DNA from: Escherichia coli
Lineage (GTDB): Bacteria > Pseudomonadota > Gammaproteobacteria > Enterobacterales > Enterobacteriaceae
NCBI RefSeq assembly: GCF_009931435.1
Contig: NZ_CP043414.1
Direction: 5' to 3' (one strand)
DNA length: 64,000 nt
The position numbers and the translations under genes are program-made. Below, piece by piece: positions 2,676 to 54,542 of the stretch. The notes beneath the pieces are model-generated. The model saw nothing but the letters and a program-made list of their open reading frames with translations, had not been told where the DNA came from and searched no databases. The stretch's first letter is position 1. Each line of letters starts with the position of its first letter.

Positions 2676-3134
2676 TTATAGAGACAAGTCCTGCAGTCGC
2701 TCCGATAAGTCTCCAGTAGCCAACTGCTCTGCGTCGATATCTTCCTTGACCTGTTGATGCCAGGTTGTTTCATCCCACAGCTCAAACTTGTTGAACTGTC
2801 CAACCAGCATCACTTCTTTTGTCAGACCGGCATGTTGCCGCAGTACTGGCGCGATTAACAATCGACCGGCGCCATCCATCTGACATTCGCTGGCATGACC
2901 TAACAGAAGGCGCTGCACACGGCGCTCAACCGGGTTCATGCTCGACAGACGCGATAATTTTTGCTCGATAATTTCCCATTCAGGCAGGGGGTAAAGCAGC
3001 AGGCACGGGTGATGAATGTCAATGGTGCAAACCATTTGACCGGCAGCGTTCTCAAGCAGCTGTTCCCGATAACGGGTAGGCACTGATAAGCGCCCTTTGC
3101 TGTCGAGATTGACTAACGTTGCTCCCCGGAACAT
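2676..3134 (-). CDS. mraZ: Transcriptional regulator MraZ
   Basis: Frame 2676..3170 trimmed to conserved [19 protein letters not shown] start (152 aa). Confidence 0.9.
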
Positions 3135-3149
3135 GCCAGCCTCACCCCT

Positions 3150-3216
3150 TATTCCCACTTTGCCCCACAATTTCCCACTGAAAGGAGTTTACGGAGCGGA
3201 GGAAAAGCTTGTCAAG
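3150..3216 (-). promoter_or_regulatory. Pmra promoter with MraZ operator: three GTGGG direct repeats at 10-bp spacing
   Basis: Minus-strand TTGACA (3210-3215), 18-nt spacer, TAAACT; three CCCAC motifs on plus strand at about 3154, 3164, 3174, immediately upstream of mraZ. Confidence 0.55.
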
Positions 3217-11900: not shown

Positions 11901-13917
<2,017 letters not shown>

Positions 13918-13947
13918 TTTGTACACCGTCCGGCACTCAATCGCCAA

Positions 13948-14177
13948 AAAGAAAAAAGCCAGCAGATAATCACTGCTGGCGTGGCGATTAACACCAATAC
14001 TCAGTCACACATGATGTCCGCAAATCAGTAGTCAGAATGACTCCCCTCCCACTGCATCAGCTCTTCAAGCATGGTTAATCGTTGTGGGACGCTTAACCAA
14101 CGCAACCAGCACAACGTCGCTGTCGCGGTAAAATAGTGCTGATAAAACTGACGTATGGGGCACCTCCTTGCTTCATC
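13948..14177 (-). ncRNA. sgrS: SgrS small RNA (glucose-phosphate stress), divergent from sgrR
   Basis: Minus-strand RNA beginning GAUGAAGCAAGG, conserved GUGUGACUGAGUAUUGGUGU seed region, terminator hairpin GCCAGCAG/CUGCUGGC plus U-run; position between sgrR and leuD. Confidence 0.75.
14025..14156 (-). pseudogene. sgrT: sgrT-like 43-codon frame inside SgrS whose initiation codon reads ATA instead of ATG
   Basis: Frame encodes (I)RQFYQHYFTATATLCWLRWLSVPQRLTMLEELMQWEGSHSDY; codon at 14154-14156 is ATA on the minus strand; an AGGAGG lies 7 nt upstream. Confidence 0.4.
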
Positions 14178-14244
14178 GTTAGGAATTATTGACTTAATAT
14201 AGGGAAAATAAAATTGCTGACTTTTGCGCAGGAGTTCCCCTTTT

Positions 14245-15900
14245 ATGCCATCTGCTCGTCTGCAACAACAGTTCATCCGCCTGTGGCAATGCTGCGAGGG
14301 TAAATCGCAGGACACAACGCTCAACGAACTAGCGGAGTTATTGAGCTGCTCCCGTCGTCATATGCGCACCCTGCTCAATACCATGCAGGATCGCGGCTGG
14401 CTGACGTGGGAAGCGGAGGTCGGGCGCGGTAAACGCTCACGTTTAACATTCCTCTATACCGGGCTGGCGCTTCAGCAACAGCGAGCAGAGGACCTGCTGG
14501 AGCAGGATCGTATCGATCAACTGGTGCAACTGGTTGGCGACAAAGCGGCTGTGCGGCAAATGTTGGTTTCTCATTTGGGACGCAGCTTCCGCCAGGGGCG
14601 GCACATCCTGCGCGTGCTCTACTATCGTCCGTTGCGCAATCTGCTGCCCGGCAGTGCATTGCGCCGTTCCGAAACCCATATCGCCCGGCAAATCTTCAGT
14701 TCGCTAACGCGCATAAATGAGGAAAATGGGGAACTGGAAGCAGACATCGCCCACCACTGGCAGCAAATATCACCGCTTCACTGGCGCTTCTTTTTGCGTC
14801 CAGGAGTCCATTTTCATCATGGTCGTGAACTGGAAATGGACGATGTGATCGCCTCTTTAAAACGAATCAATACGCTGCCGCTTTATTCGCATATTGCGGA
14901 CATTGTGTCGCCGACGCCCTGGACGCTGGATATCCATCTCACGCAACCGGACCGCTGGTTACCGTTACTGCTGGGGCAAGTTCCGGCGATGATCCTGCCA
15001 CGAGAATGGGAAACCCTCAGTAACTTTGCCAGCCATCCCATCGGCACCGGTCCGTATGCGGTGATCCGCAACAGCACCAATCAACTGAAAATTCAGGCAT
15101 TCGATGACTTCTTCGGTTATCGCGCATTAATCGACGAAGTAAATGTCTGGGTTCTGCCAGAAATTGCCGACGAGCCAGCCGGCGGTCTGATGCTAAAAGG
15201 GCCGCAGGGCGAGGAAAAAGAGATTGAAAGTCGGCTGGAGGAAGGTTGCTACTATTTACTGTTCGACAGCCGCACCCATCGCGGGGCGAACCAGGCGGTA
15301 AGAGACTGGGTAAGCTATGTTCTCTCCCCCACCAACCTGGTCTATTTTGCCGAAGAACAGTACCAGCAACTCTGGTTTCCAGCCTACGGGCTGTTGCCGC
15401 GCTGGCATCATGCCCACCCGACGCATTGCGAAAAACCCGCCGGGCTGGAAAACCTCACCCTGACTTTTTATCAGGATCATATTGAGCATCGAGTGATTGC
15501 CGGGATCATGAAGCAGATTCTGGCAAGTTATCAGGTCACACTGAAAATTAAAGAGATCAGCTACGATCAGTGGCACGAAGGAGAGATCGAAAGTGACATC
15601 TGGCTTAACAGCGCCAACTTTACGCTGCCGCTGGATTTTTCGCTGTTCGCGCACTTGTGCGAGGTGCCGCTGCTCCAACACTGTATTCCGATCGACTGGC
15701 AAGCCGACGCCGCCCGCTGGCGCAATGGCGAAATGAATCTGGCGAACTGGTGCCAGCAACTGGTCGCCAGTAAAGCAATGGTGCCACTTATCCACCACTG
15801 GCTGATCATTCAGGGGCAACGCAGTATGCGCGGTCTGCGTATGAACACCCTCGGCTGGTTCGATTTTAAATCCGCGTGGTTTGCGCCGCCGGATCCATGA
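14245..15900 (+). CDS. sgrR: Transcriptional regulator SgrR (HTH plus solute-binding-protein-like domain)
   Basis: Frame 14224..15900 trimmed to conserved [15 protein letters not shown] start (551 aa). Confidence 0.9.
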
Positions 15901-25573: not shown

Positions 25574-25580
25574 TTTAAGA

Positions 25581-25612
25581 GAAGCATCTGGGTAACAGGT
25601 GCTTCTTTTTTA
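25581..25612 (+). terminator. Rho-independent terminator after araD (may act bidirectionally)
   Basis: GAAGCATCTG-GGTAA-CAGGTGCTTC stem followed by TTTTTTATT; the minus-strand 147-aa ORF ends 7 nt beyond it. Confidence 0.8.
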
Positions 25613-25619
25613 TTATCAC

Positions 25620-26063
25620 TCAGGCAGCAAGAAAAATTTCTGCCCCTATTCCCTCAATTAACAGTGCTTCTAATGAAGGGGCAATATACACCGCATCATC
25701 AAGATCTAAATTACCAAAACCGACGAGATATAAACCAAACCCCTCTTTTCCTTCGGCATAAAAAATCACTTTTCCGCCTTCATCATCGCCAATCGCCAGA
25801 GCGTGTGGAATATAATCCTGAATATGGTATGCGGCATTCATCTCACTACAGCCTGCGGCTCCCCAAATTCTGATATAAGACGTTGAATCCATCACTTTTA
25901 ATTCAACGTCTGCCATCAGAGTAATAAAGGTTAAATACTCATCAGGAATTGCAATGTGAAAATAATTTTTTATAAGTTGACCGAGTCCACTATAATCTAA
26001 TACGGGTTCCCATGACGCCAGCGTGAATTTTTCATGCAATTTAACAATAGGAAACTTACTCAT
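25620..26063 (-). CDS. Hypothetical protein, SUKH/SMI1-KNR4-like (candidate immunity protein); third gene of the islet operon
   Basis: 147-aa ORF; ATG with AAGGA SD; start overlaps upstream ORF stop (ATGA); motifs IPDEYLTFI, AIGDDEGGKVIFY, DDAVYIAPSLEALL resemble SUKH-family immunity proteins; AT-rich. Confidence 0.6.
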   Translation of the reverse strand: MSKFPIVKLHEKFTLASWEPVLDYSGLGQLIKNYFHIAIPDEYLTFITLMADVELKVMDSTSYIRIWGAAGCSEMNAAYHIQDYIPHALAIGDDEGGKVIFYAEGKEGFGLYLVGFGNLDLDDAVYIAPSLEALLIEGIGAEIFLAA

Positions 26064-26407
26064 TTCATCATCCTTTTCTTATACTTCTGGGGTAAAATAT
26101 CCGTTATAACGCCTTCACCTATAAATCCGGCTTCCCACAGCAGAAACTCACTGCCACAGCTGATCCACGGCATTACAAGTTCAGGATTTAAAAACGCCAT
26201 CTCAAGATTGTGTACCATTTCGCCAGGGTGAATCGTTTTTCCATAGCCGTCGATGTAAATCCGGCAGCCATAACCATATGAAGATAACTCATTAATCCCT
26301 TTAAAAAAGACAGGACAGCCGTAAAAACGGTTAGATGATAACAAAGGGCCACGATGCGATTTTTGCGTTGAAGAGTATAGTGTAATGGTAATCCGAACCT
26401 TTCTCAT
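26060..26407 (-). CDS. Hypothetical 115-aa protein; second gene of the islet operon
   Basis: ATG preceded by GGAGG SD 5 nt upstream; 12-nt spacer from upstream ORF; overlaps downstream ORF start; no recognisable family. Confidence 0.55.
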   Translation of the reverse strand: MRKVRITITLYSSTQKSHRGPLLSSNRFYGCPVFFKGINELSSYGYGCRIYIDGYGKTIHPGEMVHNLEMAFLNPELVMPWISCGSEFLLWEAGFIGEGVITDILPQKYKKRMMK

Positions 26408-26419
26408 CTTCCCTCCGAA

Positions 26420-26752
26420 TTAATTACGCTCTTCAATCAAATATGTCGTTTTATTAGTCCAGGCGATTATTTTATAGGGTCTGTTAATAATACCTTTCTG
26501 CGTATAATCAGCCATAATTTCTGATGGATACCAACCATAACCAAAGCAAAATAAAGCACCTACATTAATAAGCTCACTAATTACACTTAGTTTCTCATTT
26601 TCATTACTGGTATTTTTGCTAAATCGATCATTGTCGGCAGAAAAACCCAACCGTTGCATTTTTTCAACGTTATCATATCCGGTCACTACCGTTTCAATGA
26701 AATTATCACTTATGCTAACCACTATAATACAATCGCTCGGCAGTGTGTTCAT
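26420..26752 (-). CDS. Hypothetical 110-aa protein; first gene of the islet operon
   Basis: ATG with AAGGA/AGGGG SD; AT-rich; no recognisable family. Confidence 0.55.
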   Translation of the reverse strand: MNTLPSDCIIVVSISDNFIETVVTGYDNVEKMQRLGFSADNDRFSKNTSNENEKLSVISELINVGALFCFGYGWYPSEIMADYTQKGIINRPYKIIAWTNKTTYLIEERN

Positions 26753-26975
26753 TTCCCCTTGATCCTTCTAAAGTCATTTTTTCACCACAACAATGAATTC
26801 AATAGATATAATGAATATATGCAGCCATTTATATATAATTAGCATTACACCCTAATGCCTTAATATAACCCAAACAGAAATCGTCCGATAATCAGAAAAT
26901 GTAATCATTGAATAAAGCAGGAACCTTTTTATCGCATGAGAAACCGAAGATGGTTGATGCCGTTTCGTCAAACAT

Positions 26976-27035
26976 TACTGTACAAAATATCAGTGTTCAG
27001 TAAAAAACCAGGCTATAATCAAGCCTGGTTTTTTG
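26976..27035 (+). promoter_or_regulatory. polB (dinA) SOS control region: LexA box plus promoter-proximal perfect hairpin
   Basis: TACTGTACAAAATATCAGTG (CTG-N10-CAG) at 26976-26995; AACCAGGCT-ATAATCA-AGCCTGGTT hairpin followed by TTTTT ending about 14 nt before the polB GTG. Confidence 0.6.
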
Positions 27036-27048
27036 ATGGATTTTCAGC

Positions 27049-45575: not shown

Positions 45576-46098
45576 GATATGCCTCCTGCCATTCCAGCAG
45601 ACGTTGCTTATAATGACGCGCCTGCCCTTCGAGGGTTTCGTCGTCACAAATAAAGGTGCAGTGCATAGCAAACGGAGGCAGCCAGTTCAGCCCGCAGTAG
45701 ATTGCCGTCGCCTGTAGCGGCTGCGACAGCACATCAAAGCCCGGATGCGCGCCAATCTCAAAATGACTTTCCCCGCCGCCGGTCGTCACCGCCCACAGCA
45801 AATGTTTACCATGCAGTGCCGTGCCGCCGTGACCGTAAGCCCAGCCGTGCGAGAAGACTTTATCGATCCAAAGTTTAAGGAGCGGAGGAATGCTGTACCA
45901 CTGCATCGGGTGCTGCCAGACGATCAGGTCGGCGCGAGACAACGCCTCCTGCTCGGCAGCAATATCGATATTGAAGTCAGGATAGAGTTGATAAAGAGAG
46001 CGAACTTCGACGCCTTCCAGCGTCCTTGCGTGTTCAAGCATCCGTTTATTCGCATGAGAATGATGCGGATACGGATGCGCATAAATTATGAGGATCAT
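45568..46098 (-). CDS. kefF: KefC ancillary protein / quinone oxidoreductase KefF
   Basis: 176-aa ORF; flavodoxin-like. Confidence 0.9.
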
Positions 46099-46201
46099 AG
46101 TTAACTCGCGTGTTTACGCCTTTGTTTTCCCACAAAGTGTAGTCATATATTCACGCGGCTTATAGTCAATAATATTGATTCAGAAAAAGCAGAAATCTGA
46201 A

Positions 46202-46435
46202 TCAGTTGTCCAACTCACTCATATCTTTAACCTGATCGCGGTTGATCTGTTCAGTTTGCCCGGTTTGCGCATTTTTGTAAGAAACCAGCCCGGTATCGTC
46301 ATCAACCTGCGGTTTACCATCGGTGACTATCGTTTGGCCATCGGTTGTTCTTACCGCCTGGTTTGAGGAACAGCCAGCCACAGTGAACATTACCGCCGCG
46401 GCGAAGATTGATGTGATCAATACTTTATGTTGCAT
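46202..46435 (-). CDS. Small lipoprotein, YgdI/YgdR (DUF903) family
   Basis: 77-aa ORF; lipobox VAGC; C-terminal region DG.TIV.DGKPQ.D.DTG..SYK...G....INR..VK.M.ELD parallels YgdI; occupies the position where K-12 has caiF..yaaU. Confidence 0.7.
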   Translation of the reverse strand: MQHKVLITSIFAAAVMFTVAGCSSNQAVRTTDGQTIVTDGKPQVDDDTGLVSYKNAQTGQTEQINRDQVKDMSELDN

Positions 46436-46524
46436 CGTCTTTTCCTCTGCTTTGCTGTAGTAAGCATTCAGTTTAGGTTAACTGCCTGAAAGCAAGTGAA
46501 AAAACAGAAGATTCTGAGGCGAGT

Positions 46525-46554
46525 TGCGCCCGGCAACAGCAATGTTACCGGGCG
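46525..46554 (-). terminator. Possible carB terminator hairpin
   Basis: GCGCCCGG-loop-CCGGGCGC stem just after carB stop; U-tract is weak or distal. Confidence 0.4.
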
Positions 46555-46562
46555 CGGAGGGG

Positions 46563-49500
46563 TTACTTCTTAATCTGCGCGTGCATTTCCTGCACCGAAA
46601 TTACTTTTTCAGTCGCATCGGCATTCAGCGCCATCGCGGTAGCGAAACCACCGTTCAGGGTGGTGTCATAGTGCACTTTATATTGCAGCGCACTGCGACG
46701 AATCACGCGGGAGTCCTCAATCGCACGACGGCCTGAGGTGGTGTTGATGATGTAGGTATATTCGCCATTCTTGATACGGTCCTGAATGTGCGGACGACCT
46801 TCATGCACCTTGTTCACCAGACGCGGGTTAATACCTGCTTCGCCCAGCACAATCGCTGTGCCGTGGGTCGCATCCAGCTCGAAGCCCTGTTTCAGCAGTT
46901 TTGCCGCCAGGTCAACCACGCGTTCTTTATCGCCTTCACGCACGGAGAGCAACGCACGACCGTGTTTCTTCATCGTGGAGTTACTGCCCAGCTGCGCTTT
47001 GGCAAACGCTTCAGCGAAGGTGCGGCCCACGCCCATCACTTCCCCGGTAGAGCGCATTTCTGGCCCTAACAGCGGGTCAACGCCGGGGAATTTGTTGAAC
47101 GGCAGCACCACTTCTTTCACCGAGTAATATGGCGGGATAACTTCTTTAGTTACGCCCTGCTCAGCCAGCGATTTGCCAGCCATCACACGCGCCGCTACTT
47201 TCGCCAGCGGTACGCCGGTGGCTTTGGAGACGAACGGAACGGTACGCGCCGCACGCGGGTTAACTTCAATCAGGTAGACTTCGTTGTTTTTCACCGCAAA
47301 CTGCACGTTCATCAGTCCGCGCACCTGCAATTCGAAGGCCAGTTTCTGCACCTGTTGGCGCATCACATCCTGAATTTCCTGACTTAAAGTGTAGGCTGGC
47401 AGAGAACATGCGGAGTCACCGGAGTGCACGCCCGCCTGCTCAATATGCTCCATGATGCCGCCAATCAGCACCATTTCACCGTCGCAGATGGCGTCCACAT
47501 CCACTTCTACCGCGTCATCGAGGAAGTGGTCCAGCAATACTGGTGCATCGTTAGACACGCTCACCGCCGTCTGGAAGTAGCGACGCAGGTCAGCTTCGTC
47601 ATAGACGATTTCCATCGCCCGACCGCCGAGAACGTAAGACGGACGCACCACCAGCGGGTAACCAATCTCTTTTGCCTTCTCAACCGCCATTTCAATAGCG
47701 GTAACGGTGGCGTTCGCCGGTTGTTTCAGTTTCAGACGGTCAACCGCATGCTGGAAGCGTTCACGGTCTTCCGCACGGTCGATAGCATCCGGGCTGGTGC
47801 CGATAACCGGTACGCCAGCGGCTTCCAGTGCGCGCGCCAGTTTCAGCGGGGTCTGACCGCCGTACTGAACGATAACGCCTTTCGGCTTCTCAATACGCAC
47901 GATTTCCAGCACATCTTCCAGAGTTACCGGCTCGAAGTAGAGGCGATCGGAAGTGTCGTAGTCAGTGGAGACGGTTTCCGGGTTACAGTTAACCATAATG
48001 GTTTCGTAACCGTCTTCACGTAGCGCCAGCGAGGCGTGTACACAGCAGTAGTCGAATTCAATACCCTGACCGATACGGTTCGGGCCGCCGCCGAGCACCA
48101 TGATTTTGTCACGGTCAGATGGGTTGGATTCGCACTCTTCTTCATAGGTGGAGTACATATACGCGGTGTCGGTGGCAAATTCTGCCGCACAGGTATCCAC
48201 ACGTTTGTAGACCGGGTGCAGGTCATACTGGTCGCGTAGCTTGCGGATTTCCGCTTCGCGCACGCCCGCCAGTTTAGCCAGACGCGCATCGGCAAAGCCT
48301 TTGCGTTTCAACTGGCGCAGGAAGTCAGCGTTCAGGCCAGTGATGCCCACTTCCGCCACTTTCTCTTCCAGACGCACCAGTTCTTCAATTTGTACCAGGA
48401 ACCAGCGGTCAATGTTGGTCAGGTTAAAGACGCCGTCTACAGACAGGCCCGCACGGAAAGCATCGGCGATGTACCAGATACGATCTGCGCCTGCGTCTTT
48501 CAGCTCGCGGCGAATTTTGGTCAGCGCTTCCGGGTCGTCCAGGCTGACTTTCGGGTCAAAACCAGTCGCACCGACTTCCAGGCCGCGCAGGGCTTTTTGC
48601 AGGGATTCCTGCTGCGTGCGACCAATCGCCATCACTTCGCCGACGGATTTCATCTGAGTGGTCAGACGATCGTTAGCACCGGCGAATTTCTCGAAGTTGA
48701 AGCGAGGAATTTTGGTCACCACGTAGTCGATGGACGGTTCGAAGGAGGCCGGAGTACGCCCGCCAGTGATGTCGTTCATCAGTTCATCGAGGGTGTAACC
48801 AACCGCCAGTTTCGCCGCCACTTTGGCAATCGGGAAACCGGTGGCTTTCGACGCCAGCGCCGAAGAACGGGACACTCGCGGGTTCATTTCGATAACAATC
48901 AGGCGACCATTTTTCGGGTTCACCGCAAACTGGACGTTGGAACCACCGGTTTCAACGCCGATTTCACGCAGCACCGCCATCGAGGCGTTACGCATGATTT
49001 GATATTCTTTGTCGGTCAGCGTTTGGGCTGGCGCGACAGTGATGGAGTCACCGGTATGGATGCCCATCGCATCGAAGTTTTCGATAGAGCAGACGATGAT
49101 GCAGTTGTCGTTTTTATCACGCACCACTTCCATCTCGTACTCTTTCCAGCCGATCAGCGACTCATCAATCAGCAACTCTTTGGTCGGAGAGAGATCCAGA
49201 CCGCGGGCGCAAATTTCTTCAAACTCTTCGCGGTTATAAGCGATACCGCCACCGCTACCGCCCATAGTAAAGGATGGGCGAATAATGCACGGGAAGCCCA
49301 CATCAGCGGCAACTGCCAGCGCTTCTTCCATGGTGTGCGCGATACCGGAACGCGCAGTTTCCAGACCGATTTTCTTCATCGCCACGTCGAAACGGCGGCG
49401 GTCTTCGGCTTTATCAATCGCATCGGCGGTGGCACCAATCATGGTGACGCCGAACTCTTCCAGCACGCCCTGACGCTCCAGCTCCAGCGCACAGTTCAGC

Positions 49501-53333: not shown

Positions 53334-54542
53334 TTACTTGCTCATGGCTTTGAACTCATCGCGGCTGATACAGATATCCGAAATATCTTTATTCGTCACC
53401 AGACGCGGGCTAAGTTTATCGCCTTCAACAAACGGTACTAGCGGGCAAAATTCCCCTGGAGACGCTTTATCTTCCTGCCACTGAATTTCAATGGATTCCG
53501 GCTTCATACCTGGTTTCTGTGACTGAATGACTGTGCGGATATCCGTGGTTAACTGAAATGGCTCACACCCCTTCACATCAGTAAAAGTCGGCGTCAGATG
53601 ACCATTCTTACGTTCCTGCAGATAAAAAATGCGGCCATCGTGATAGGAAGGAATTACGTAGCAGGTATACATTTTACCTTTGCTTAGCACGGGCTGAAGA
53701 TAACTTGAACCTCTCTCGATCAATTCAACCTCTTTCCCCTTCCAGCGATAAACGTCAACCCCGTGACTACAGCAGCTTCCTCGCCAATGGCTGACGATCT
53801 GCTTATATTCTGCATCTGGCTCCGGCGAGGTGATTTCCTGATAAGACGCAGGCGCATCAACAAAACGTTGTGTTGAGGGATCGTAAAGCCAGGTTTGTTC
53901 GGGGATATTGGGTCCAGCGGGTAACTCTTGCGGAATGGAAAGATCCGGATAACCATCAAAATTAACATCCTTCCATTGAGGCGTAAAAATGCTACAAGTG
54001 CCGATAGAAGCAGTATATAAGGTCTGTATCGGTTTCCCATCACGATATAATTTTATTGCTGAAATGACCGGAACATTATTACAGTCGATCGCTTTGGAAG
54101 GGTCGTAATCGTCATTCACTTCCGCCACCAGCACCAGATCAATGCCCGGATCGTTTTTGGGTTTGTTATAGTTAAGCGCAATGGGGAAATGGTGTTTTTT
54201 ATCGGCTGAAGTCCATACACCTTTTATCTCAATCGGTGAAACTTCAGCATCCCATTGACCAGAAAGTGTCTGTGCGCGCTCCTCAAGAAGCAACCGCTTA
54301 ACCTGGAGAGATCCACGCAGAATTAATCGCATTTTTCTCTGATTGCAGGGTTCATAGCAATAGCTACCATGAAGGTCGTTGTTAATCCGCGTGATATCGA
54401 CACTTACCTGCTTACCCGCAATCGTCCCGGAATAATTTCGATCCCAGAACGGAAATTCAAGCTGCGAAGCGCCATTGGCCGCTCCCAAACAAAATACAAA
54501 AGCCAAAAATCCCGCCAATCCATAAGCTATCTTGCTCATCAT
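53334..54542 (-). CDS. Hypothetical secreted Cys-rich protein (402 aa) inserted between ispH and rihC
   Basis: ATG with GGAGG SD; N-terminal signal peptide [25 protein letters not shown]; at least 10 Cys; FDGYPDL motif; no family recognised; absent at this position in K-12. Confidence 0.65.

Follow-up and report, generated by a model that had tools for sequence, protein, structure and literature searches.

An AUA codon at the sgrT start in a setA-less sgrR-sgrS locus of Escherichia coli: SgrS riboregulation probably retained with little or no SgrT

SgrT is a peptide that blocks the PtsG transporter. [quoted passage not shown] Loss of the sgrT start codon is already known from O157:H7, in which a point mutation probably leaves no functional SgrT, making riboregulation the more conserved function (Horler and Vanderpool, 2009; PMC2760817); a 2014 review describes this mutation as “presumably abrogating SgrT production” (PMC4021124). 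The change was specified as ATG to ATT, together with an improved Shine-Dalgarno sequence (AAGGAGGT), by Neuhaus et al. (2017; PMC5331693), who reported a ribosome coverage value (RCV) of 1.55 for SgrS of EHEC and hypothesised that ATT acts as a rare start. Furthermore, SgrS of Yersinia and Photorhabdus is a pure riboregulator without SgrT, and SgrS of Y. pestis is reported to be fully functional as such even though Yersinia SgrS lacks the 5' part of the RNA (PMC2760817). As for near-cognate starts in general, initiation from AUA, AUC, AUU and CUG amounts to 1-2% of the AUG level in a T7-sfGFP reporter and to 0.02-3% in single-copy NanoLuc (Hecht et al., 10.1101/063800). The AUA codon described below is a further allele of the O157:H7 sort, and no published description of an sgrT ATA allele was found.

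The locus lies in a window of 64,000 nucleotides of E. coli DNA (NCBI RefSeq assembly GCF_009931435.1, contig NZ_CP043414.1), to which all coordinates refer unless stated otherwise. SgrS is present at its full length of 227 nt on the minus strand (13951-14177), begins with GAUGAAGCAAGGAGGUGCCCCAUACGUCAG in RNA sense and matches Rfam family RF00534 over model positions 1-232 with 226 bits against a gathering score of 37 (E=3e-64). It is transcribed (from 14177 to 13951) divergently from sgrR, an intact plus-strand reading frame of 551 codons (14245-15900 in the ORF list). The exact SgrR protein is recorded as [quoted passage not shown] on 17 contigs, all of them Escherichia or E. coli, and shares 98% identity with SgrR of strain 2013C-4282. 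The intergenic region between the two genes (14178-14244) contains the sgrS promoter; in an alignment with K-12, O157:H7, 2013C-4282 and VG1046-3E9, the approximately 40 nt preceding the SgrS start, including a -10-like AATAAT, are invariant, and the sole variable intergenic base (14220) has the state found in 2013C-4282. Within the RNA, the seed or base-pairing region (SgrS nt 168-187; 13991-14010, minus strand) is the 20-mer GTGTGACTGAGTATTGGTGT, exactly as in K-12, corresponds to the conserved 3' region that includes G176 and G178 and is complementary to ptsG, and is without variation across the five-sequence alignment; with ptsG located beyond the window, the seed was judged from the SgrS side. 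The intrinsic terminator (13951-13980, minus strand) consists of a hairpin at 13980-13958 with 8 pairs, 6 of them G-C, followed by a U-tract with the tail TTTTTTCTTT; it was found by a terminator scan and also forms the terminal helix of the Rfam model. These results bear out the preliminary description of this DNA, which had recognised SgrS, divergent from sgrR, with its seed and terminator conserved. An AUG at SgrS nt 2 (GAUGAAG…) additionally opens a 27-codon reading frame (14176-14093, minus strand; MKQGGAPYVSFISTILPRQRRCAGCVG, then a stop codon), which is in a frame other than that of sgrT and occurs in K-12 too. Being near-leaderless, this start could explain part of the ribosome coverage of SgrS independently of sgrT.

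The sgrT frame comprises 43 codons followed by TGA (14025-14156, minus strand, with the stop at 14027-14025). Its translation, IRQFYQHYFTATATLCWLRWLSVPQRLTMLEELMQWEGSHSDY, matches Pfam SgrT (PF15894; E=1e-12, residues 3-37); NCBIfam holds no SgrT model, hence the lack of an NCBIfam match for SgrT. Beyond codon 1 the protein is identical to WP_001248772.1, a common protein annotated in 2013C-4282, and it differs from K-12 SgrT by eight residues past codon 1, six of them within the last seven. The first codon, at SgrS nt 22-24 (14154-14156, minus strand; TAT on the plus strand), reads AUA in place of AUG in the alignments, and the underlying G-to-A change sits at 14154, which is SgrS nt 24. This is the sole difference between SgrS of the window and the ATG alleles of 2013C-4282 and 2020CK-00188 (226/227 nt identical). 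In front of this codon stands the Shine-Dalgarno sequence AAGGAGGT (14162-14169, minus strand), with 6 nt between GGAGG and the start codon and without the occluding GGGGG/CCCC hairpin of K-12, the counterpart of which reads AAGGGGGT. The frame thus has a Shine-Dalgarno sequence, and its first codon is AUA instead of one of the canonical initiation codons AUG, GUG and UUG. No in-frame AUG, GUG or UUG occurs upstream of the AUA inside the transcript, as read from the sequence; neither a GTG at 14163-14161 nor the AUG at +2 is in frame with sgrT. In-frame starts downstream are UUG at codons 15 and 18 and AUG at codons 29 and 34, all without a Shine-Dalgarno sequence and all leading to a truncated peptide. 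The frame has no secondary lesions, which is uninformative given that the allele is just one mutation away from the ATG form. The preliminary description was correct in reporting an open 43-codon frame with ATA (14156-14154) at the position of the K-12 AUG, a strong AGGAGG (within AAGGAGGT, 14169-14162) and C-terminal residues that differ from K-12; the K-12 start on which it relied, and which it named as a possible point of refutation, agrees with K-12-lineage records, in which ATG stands at this position.

An sgrT codon that differs by a single base from the closest alleles, and that is nearly missing from complete genomes (1 of 5,392, see below), might be a sequencing or assembly error in a strain that is truly ATG. 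A search for exact copies of the SgrR protein encoded in the window led to two further assemblies at NCBI, GCA_036246705.1 and GCA_030511265.1, both independent of the window, in which the 361-nt sgrR-sgrS-leuD junction is identical, ATA included. Over 6,656 nt these assemblies differ from the window by 1 and 3 mismatches, so that they are distinct genomes of one small clade, which excludes a sequencing error; furthermore, the position lies outside any homopolymer. With the ATA common to three distinct genomes, an error is extremely improbable and was rejected. The size of the clade is bounded by the number of contigs with the exact SgrR (17 in one look-up, and 24 across 40 index blocks in another), two of which were read at the DNA level.

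The surroundings of sgrS differ from K-12 in a second respect. The 201-aa leuD (13312-13917, plus strand, identified from its reading frame and as leuD in matching records) is convergent with sgrS, and its stop at 13917 is separated from the SgrS end by a junction of 33 nt (13918-13950) without setA; the K-12-type arrangement, with setA directly after the sgrS terminator, is thus absent, as the preliminary description had stated in placing the 3' end of leuD next to the terminator. When the junction of the SgrS terminator and leuD was queried with 96 nt, 2,157 of 5,426 complete E. coli genomes (40%) matched, 726 of them at ≥99% identity, with Nissle 1917, ATCC 25922 and O157:H7 as carriers among the matches listed; in the other complete genomes setA is present, arranged as in K-12. 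The setA-less haplotype also includes the divergent C-terminus of SgrT (…EELMQWEGSHSDY), which is found, in a protein with an M start, on at least 1,000 contigs, and nearly every carrier of the haplotype has a normal ATG. The 88% identity of K-12 SgrS to SgrS of CFT073 and Sakai was already noted by Horler and Vanderpool (PMC2760817). The absence of setA and the altered C-terminus are thus features of a common haplotype and are unlinked to the start-codon change. A single degenerative event encompassing the setA loss, the C-terminal change and the start codon was therefore rejected, as 40% of complete genomes have the haplotype and nearly all of these have ATG. The leuD genes also differ in their last codon, with …AFMR before the stop in the window (13915-13917) and …AFMN in K-12 (retrieved locus L004, 4565-4570), from which the deep divergence of the haplotypes appears to span the 3' third of sgrS and to reach into the end of leuD. 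On the plus strand of this stretch (13918-13980), no T-run comes after the terminator hairpin; with the leuD stop 33 nt away, transcripts that read through from the leu operon would run antisense to SgrS. In K-12, by contrast, setA and leuD have a separate hairpin between them.

The frequency of sgrT start codons was assessed by a census of complete RefSeq E. coli genomes, in which exact matches to short queries were counted via BLAST identity bands; draft genomes, which number hundreds of thousands, are outside its scope. With a 61-mer spanning the Shine-Dalgarno sequence and the start codon (around 14126-14186), 5,392 genomes were matched. AGGAGG is the majority form of the Shine-Dalgarno sequence and is followed, in exact matches, by ATG in 3,349 of the 5,392 genomes, by ATT of the O157:H7 type in 312 and by ATA in 1, namely VG1046-3E9, which carries an unrelated haplotype with setA. 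ATG together with the K-12 GGGGG hairpin accounted for 1,421 of the 5,392 (26%); this hairpin type was reported in 2009 in 3 of 15 strains. A 48-mer without the polymorphic Shine-Dalgarno base (5,234 genomes) likewise gave ATA once and ATT 312 times, and an ATC start was found in 0 of these 5,234 complete genomes. The ATT matches listed are O157 or O157:H7 strains or have no serotype given, which is the basis for referring to ATT as the O157:H7-type allele. Elsewhere, a 29-mer with ATA had 0 matches in a metagenome contig collection, and a scan of GTDB species representatives with ATN returned one match, Escherichia sp. MOD1-EC7003, with ATG and setA, the ordinary E. coli representative evidently not being among those returned.

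Annotation is blind to these substitutions. In RefSeq, PGAP enters the frames of VG1046-3E9 (ATA) and O157:H7 (ATT), at 3031-3162 of the retrieved loci, as CDS for a “glucose uptake inhibitor SgrT”, gives them M-start protein accessions and does not flag them as pseudogenes; in two further loci (L006 and L007, 2281-2412), the product called is 43 aa long and matches Pfam SgrT. The ordinary sgrT annotation of ATA and ATT frames makes start-codon loss invisible at the protein level, and protein surveys would thus miss it.

The lineage that carries the allele is a rarely sampled one within E. coli. The best match to 24 kb of the window in complete genomes has 98.4% identity at 94% coverage, and in the leuC-thiB stretch identity amounts to 97.7% with 2013C-4282 and to about 93.5-95% with K-12. 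The flanking region is just 94.3% identical to O157:H7, which moreover has ATT, and the possibility that the window is O157:H7 was rejected on these grounds. At 45671-46563, kefC and kefF are followed almost at once by carB, with a small gene for a YgdI/YgdR-family lipoprotein in between (as in matching records). In K-12 this position is occupied by caiF-caiTABCDE-fixABCX-yaaU (approximately 13 kb), a cluster that is absent here. The kefF-carB junction without the cai/fix cluster occurs in 2 of 5,426 complete genomes, 2020CK-00188 (99.1%) and GF4-3 (94.8%), and the nearer of the two, 2020CK-00188, has ATG at sgrT, so that the G-to-A change falls on the branch from which the small ATA clade descends. 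Two other features of the window lie apart from sgrS. An island of about 1.4 kb between araD and polB (25574-27048) holds three minus-strand ORFs of 147, 115 and 110 aa, none with an NCBIfam match, the 147-aa product having a weak match to SMI1/KNR4 (SUKH-1, an immunity-protein family; Pfam E=7e-4); it is missing in most complete E. coli genomes and, among the matches listed, is covered by SCU-301 and 2014C-3075 alone. An ORF of 402 aa (53334-54542, minus strand) between rihC and an ispH-like ORF contains an XAC2610-related domain (NF047539, E=1.5e-25), at a position where K-12 presumably has no gene.

The single complete genome with ATA, VG1046-3E9 (NZ_CP128594.1), shares with the window the change from ATG to ATA and the AGGAGG Shine-Dalgarno sequence. 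It differs in its K-12-like haplotype, with setA, the K-12 SgrT C-terminus and a K-12-like 3' half of SgrS, and its ATA is known from that one genome. The flanking markers at -43 and at SgrS nt 62 differ among the alleles, and the ATA of the window can therefore be taken as independent both of the ATT of O157:H7 and of the ATA of VG1046-3E9; the latter, on this sequence evidence, most likely represents a separate event. Acquisition of ATA by recombination from VG1046-3E9 is unlikely, since the differing markers 43 nt upstream of the transcription start and at nt 62 would require a tract shorter than about 105 nt.

The comparison with the described systems places the window allele closest to O157:H7. 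SgrS of O157:H7 is identical to that of the window at 224 of 227 nt, with seed and terminator kept in both, and the two share the changed nucleotide (SgrS nt 24), the Shine-Dalgarno sequence AAGGAGGT, the setA-less haplotype and the SgrT C-terminus. They differ in the base at nt 24, T in O157:H7 and A in the window, and at nt 62 and nt 117, as well as in frequency, with the ATT in 312 complete genomes and the window's ATA allele in three known genomes; the expected outcome would be alike, with SgrT lost or nearly lost. K-12 agrees with the window in the locus, its divergence from sgrR and the 43-codon frame, in the identical promoter-proximal sequence and seed (nt 168-187) and, nearly so, in the N-terminal 31 residues of SgrT. 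It differs in having an AUG but an occluded Shine-Dalgarno sequence (the GGGGGUGCCCC hairpin), in setA downstream and in the 3' third of SgrS (overall about 87% identity, 201/230); sgrT translation is thus weakened by structure in K-12 and by the start codon in the window allele. In Yersinia and Photorhabdus sgrT is physically gone by 5' truncation, whereas in the window the whole frame is present and the initiation codon alone is changed.

The most economical account of these data, and one considered probable, is that the window carries an ordinary setA-less sgrR-sgrS locus in which one G-to-A substitution turned the sgrT AUG into AUA, so that riboregulation is kept and little or no SgrT is made, as in O157:H7. 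As the promoter region, seed, terminator and fold of SgrS are unchanged and sgrR is intact, SgrR should still be able to induce SgrS, which in turn should repress ptsG and manXYZ through base pairing. Ribosomes would still bind the strong, unoccluded AAGGAGGU site, and initiation at AUA would be expected at approximately 0.02-3% of that at AUG. Glucose-phosphate stress would then be handled in this lineage by riboregulation with little or no contribution from SgrT, a functional state equal to that of O157:H7 (ATT) and reached independently by another base change at the same nucleotide. Most likely, therefore, SgrS base pairing is kept and SgrT output does not exceed a few percent of that from AUG; the sequence alone does not separate “lost” from “weakly initiated” SgrT, that is, a null allele from a strong hypomorph. 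The core proposal of the preliminary description, that base pairing is retained while the peptide is lost or unconventionally initiated, stands as the best-supported reading and fits the literature on the O157:H7 ATT (PMC2760817; PMC4021124; PMC5331693), but the setA absence and the SgrT C-terminus, which it had bundled with this proposal, are not part of the story, as they belong to a common haplotype (2,157 of 5,426 genomes).

The substitution might instead act chiefly on the RNA, by breaking the G24-C pair in the long 5'/middle helix and altering the folding, stability or Hfq handling of SgrS, with the effect on sgrT incidental. The partner of the mutated base in the Rfam consensus structure is C14054, which leaves A.C as the sole non-canonical pair of the model; ViennaRNA predicts that the minimum free energy rises from -82.3 (AUG) to -77.9 kcal/mol (AUA), with a weaker helix. 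Nevertheless, the prediction leaves the architecture, the terminator and the unpaired seed as they were, a single mismatch matters little in a helix of about 22 bp, and this helix belongs to the 5' part of SgrS, which is missing from Yersinia SgrS although that of Y. pestis is reported to be fully functional in riboregulation (PMC2760817). An effect chiefly at the level of the RNA is thus very improbable. The same prediction bears on translation, as the probability that the start codon is unpaired increases from 0.06 to 0.37 with the G-to-A change, and loss of a G-C pair that sequesters the start codon could, in this model, slightly favour residual initiation.

SgrT may still be made in physiologically useful amounts from AUA, tuned down and possibly IF3-dependent, if the accessible AAGGAGGU and the opened helix compensate for the codon. 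The Shine-Dalgarno sequence is of the best class with a 6-nt spacing, the inhibitory hairpin of K-12 is absent, the start codon is more accessible in the predicted ensemble, and AUA initiation is measurable (10.1101/063800), though near-cognate initiation reaches at most 3% of the AUG level even behind strong ribosome-binding sites (10.1101/063800) and native SgrT of K-12 is too low for rescue even with AUG (PMC2760806; PMC4021124). The ribosome footprints on the ATT allele of EHEC (RCV 1.55; PMC5331693) are consistent with residual synthesis, but this coverage could stem from other frames, such as that of the +2 AUG. That PGAP lists sgrT with ATA or ATT as a normal CDS would also fit, but this annotation is homology-driven and is no evidence of translation. 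On balance, useful synthesis from AUA is unlikely, though with an appreciable chance of being correct, and little or no SgrT beside a functional SgrS remains the preferred reading. In E. coli, infC and pcnB, with AUU starts, likewise have a near-cognate AUN codon behind a normal ribosome-binding site (10.1101/063800). Their starts are conserved and regulatory, with infC autoregulated by IF3, whereas the AUA of sgrT arose recently from AUG, is confined to one lineage and shows no sign of use.

Three independent hits on the same start-codon base, the ATT of O157:H7, the ATA of VG1046-3E9 and the ATA of the window lineage, have all occurred on the strongly translated AGGAGG background. They may reflect recurrent selection for weakened sgrT translation in E. 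coli, in which case the AUA would be a convergent down-tuning of the peptide arm and not neutral decay, and the K-12-type GGGGG hairpin, present in 26% of complete genomes, would reach the same end via structure. With just three events and no homoplasy baseline, such selection is doubtful and is put forward as a speculation. While the ATA allele otherwise leaves the knowledge of SgrS and SgrT as before, it would represent a second, independently arisen natural allele of E. coli in which the base-pairing arm of SgrS is kept and the canonical start of the peptide is lost. Furthermore, the AUA and AUG alleles, one base apart (226/227 nt), provide a clean natural pair for gauging the contribution of SgrT made from an unoccluded AGGAGG.
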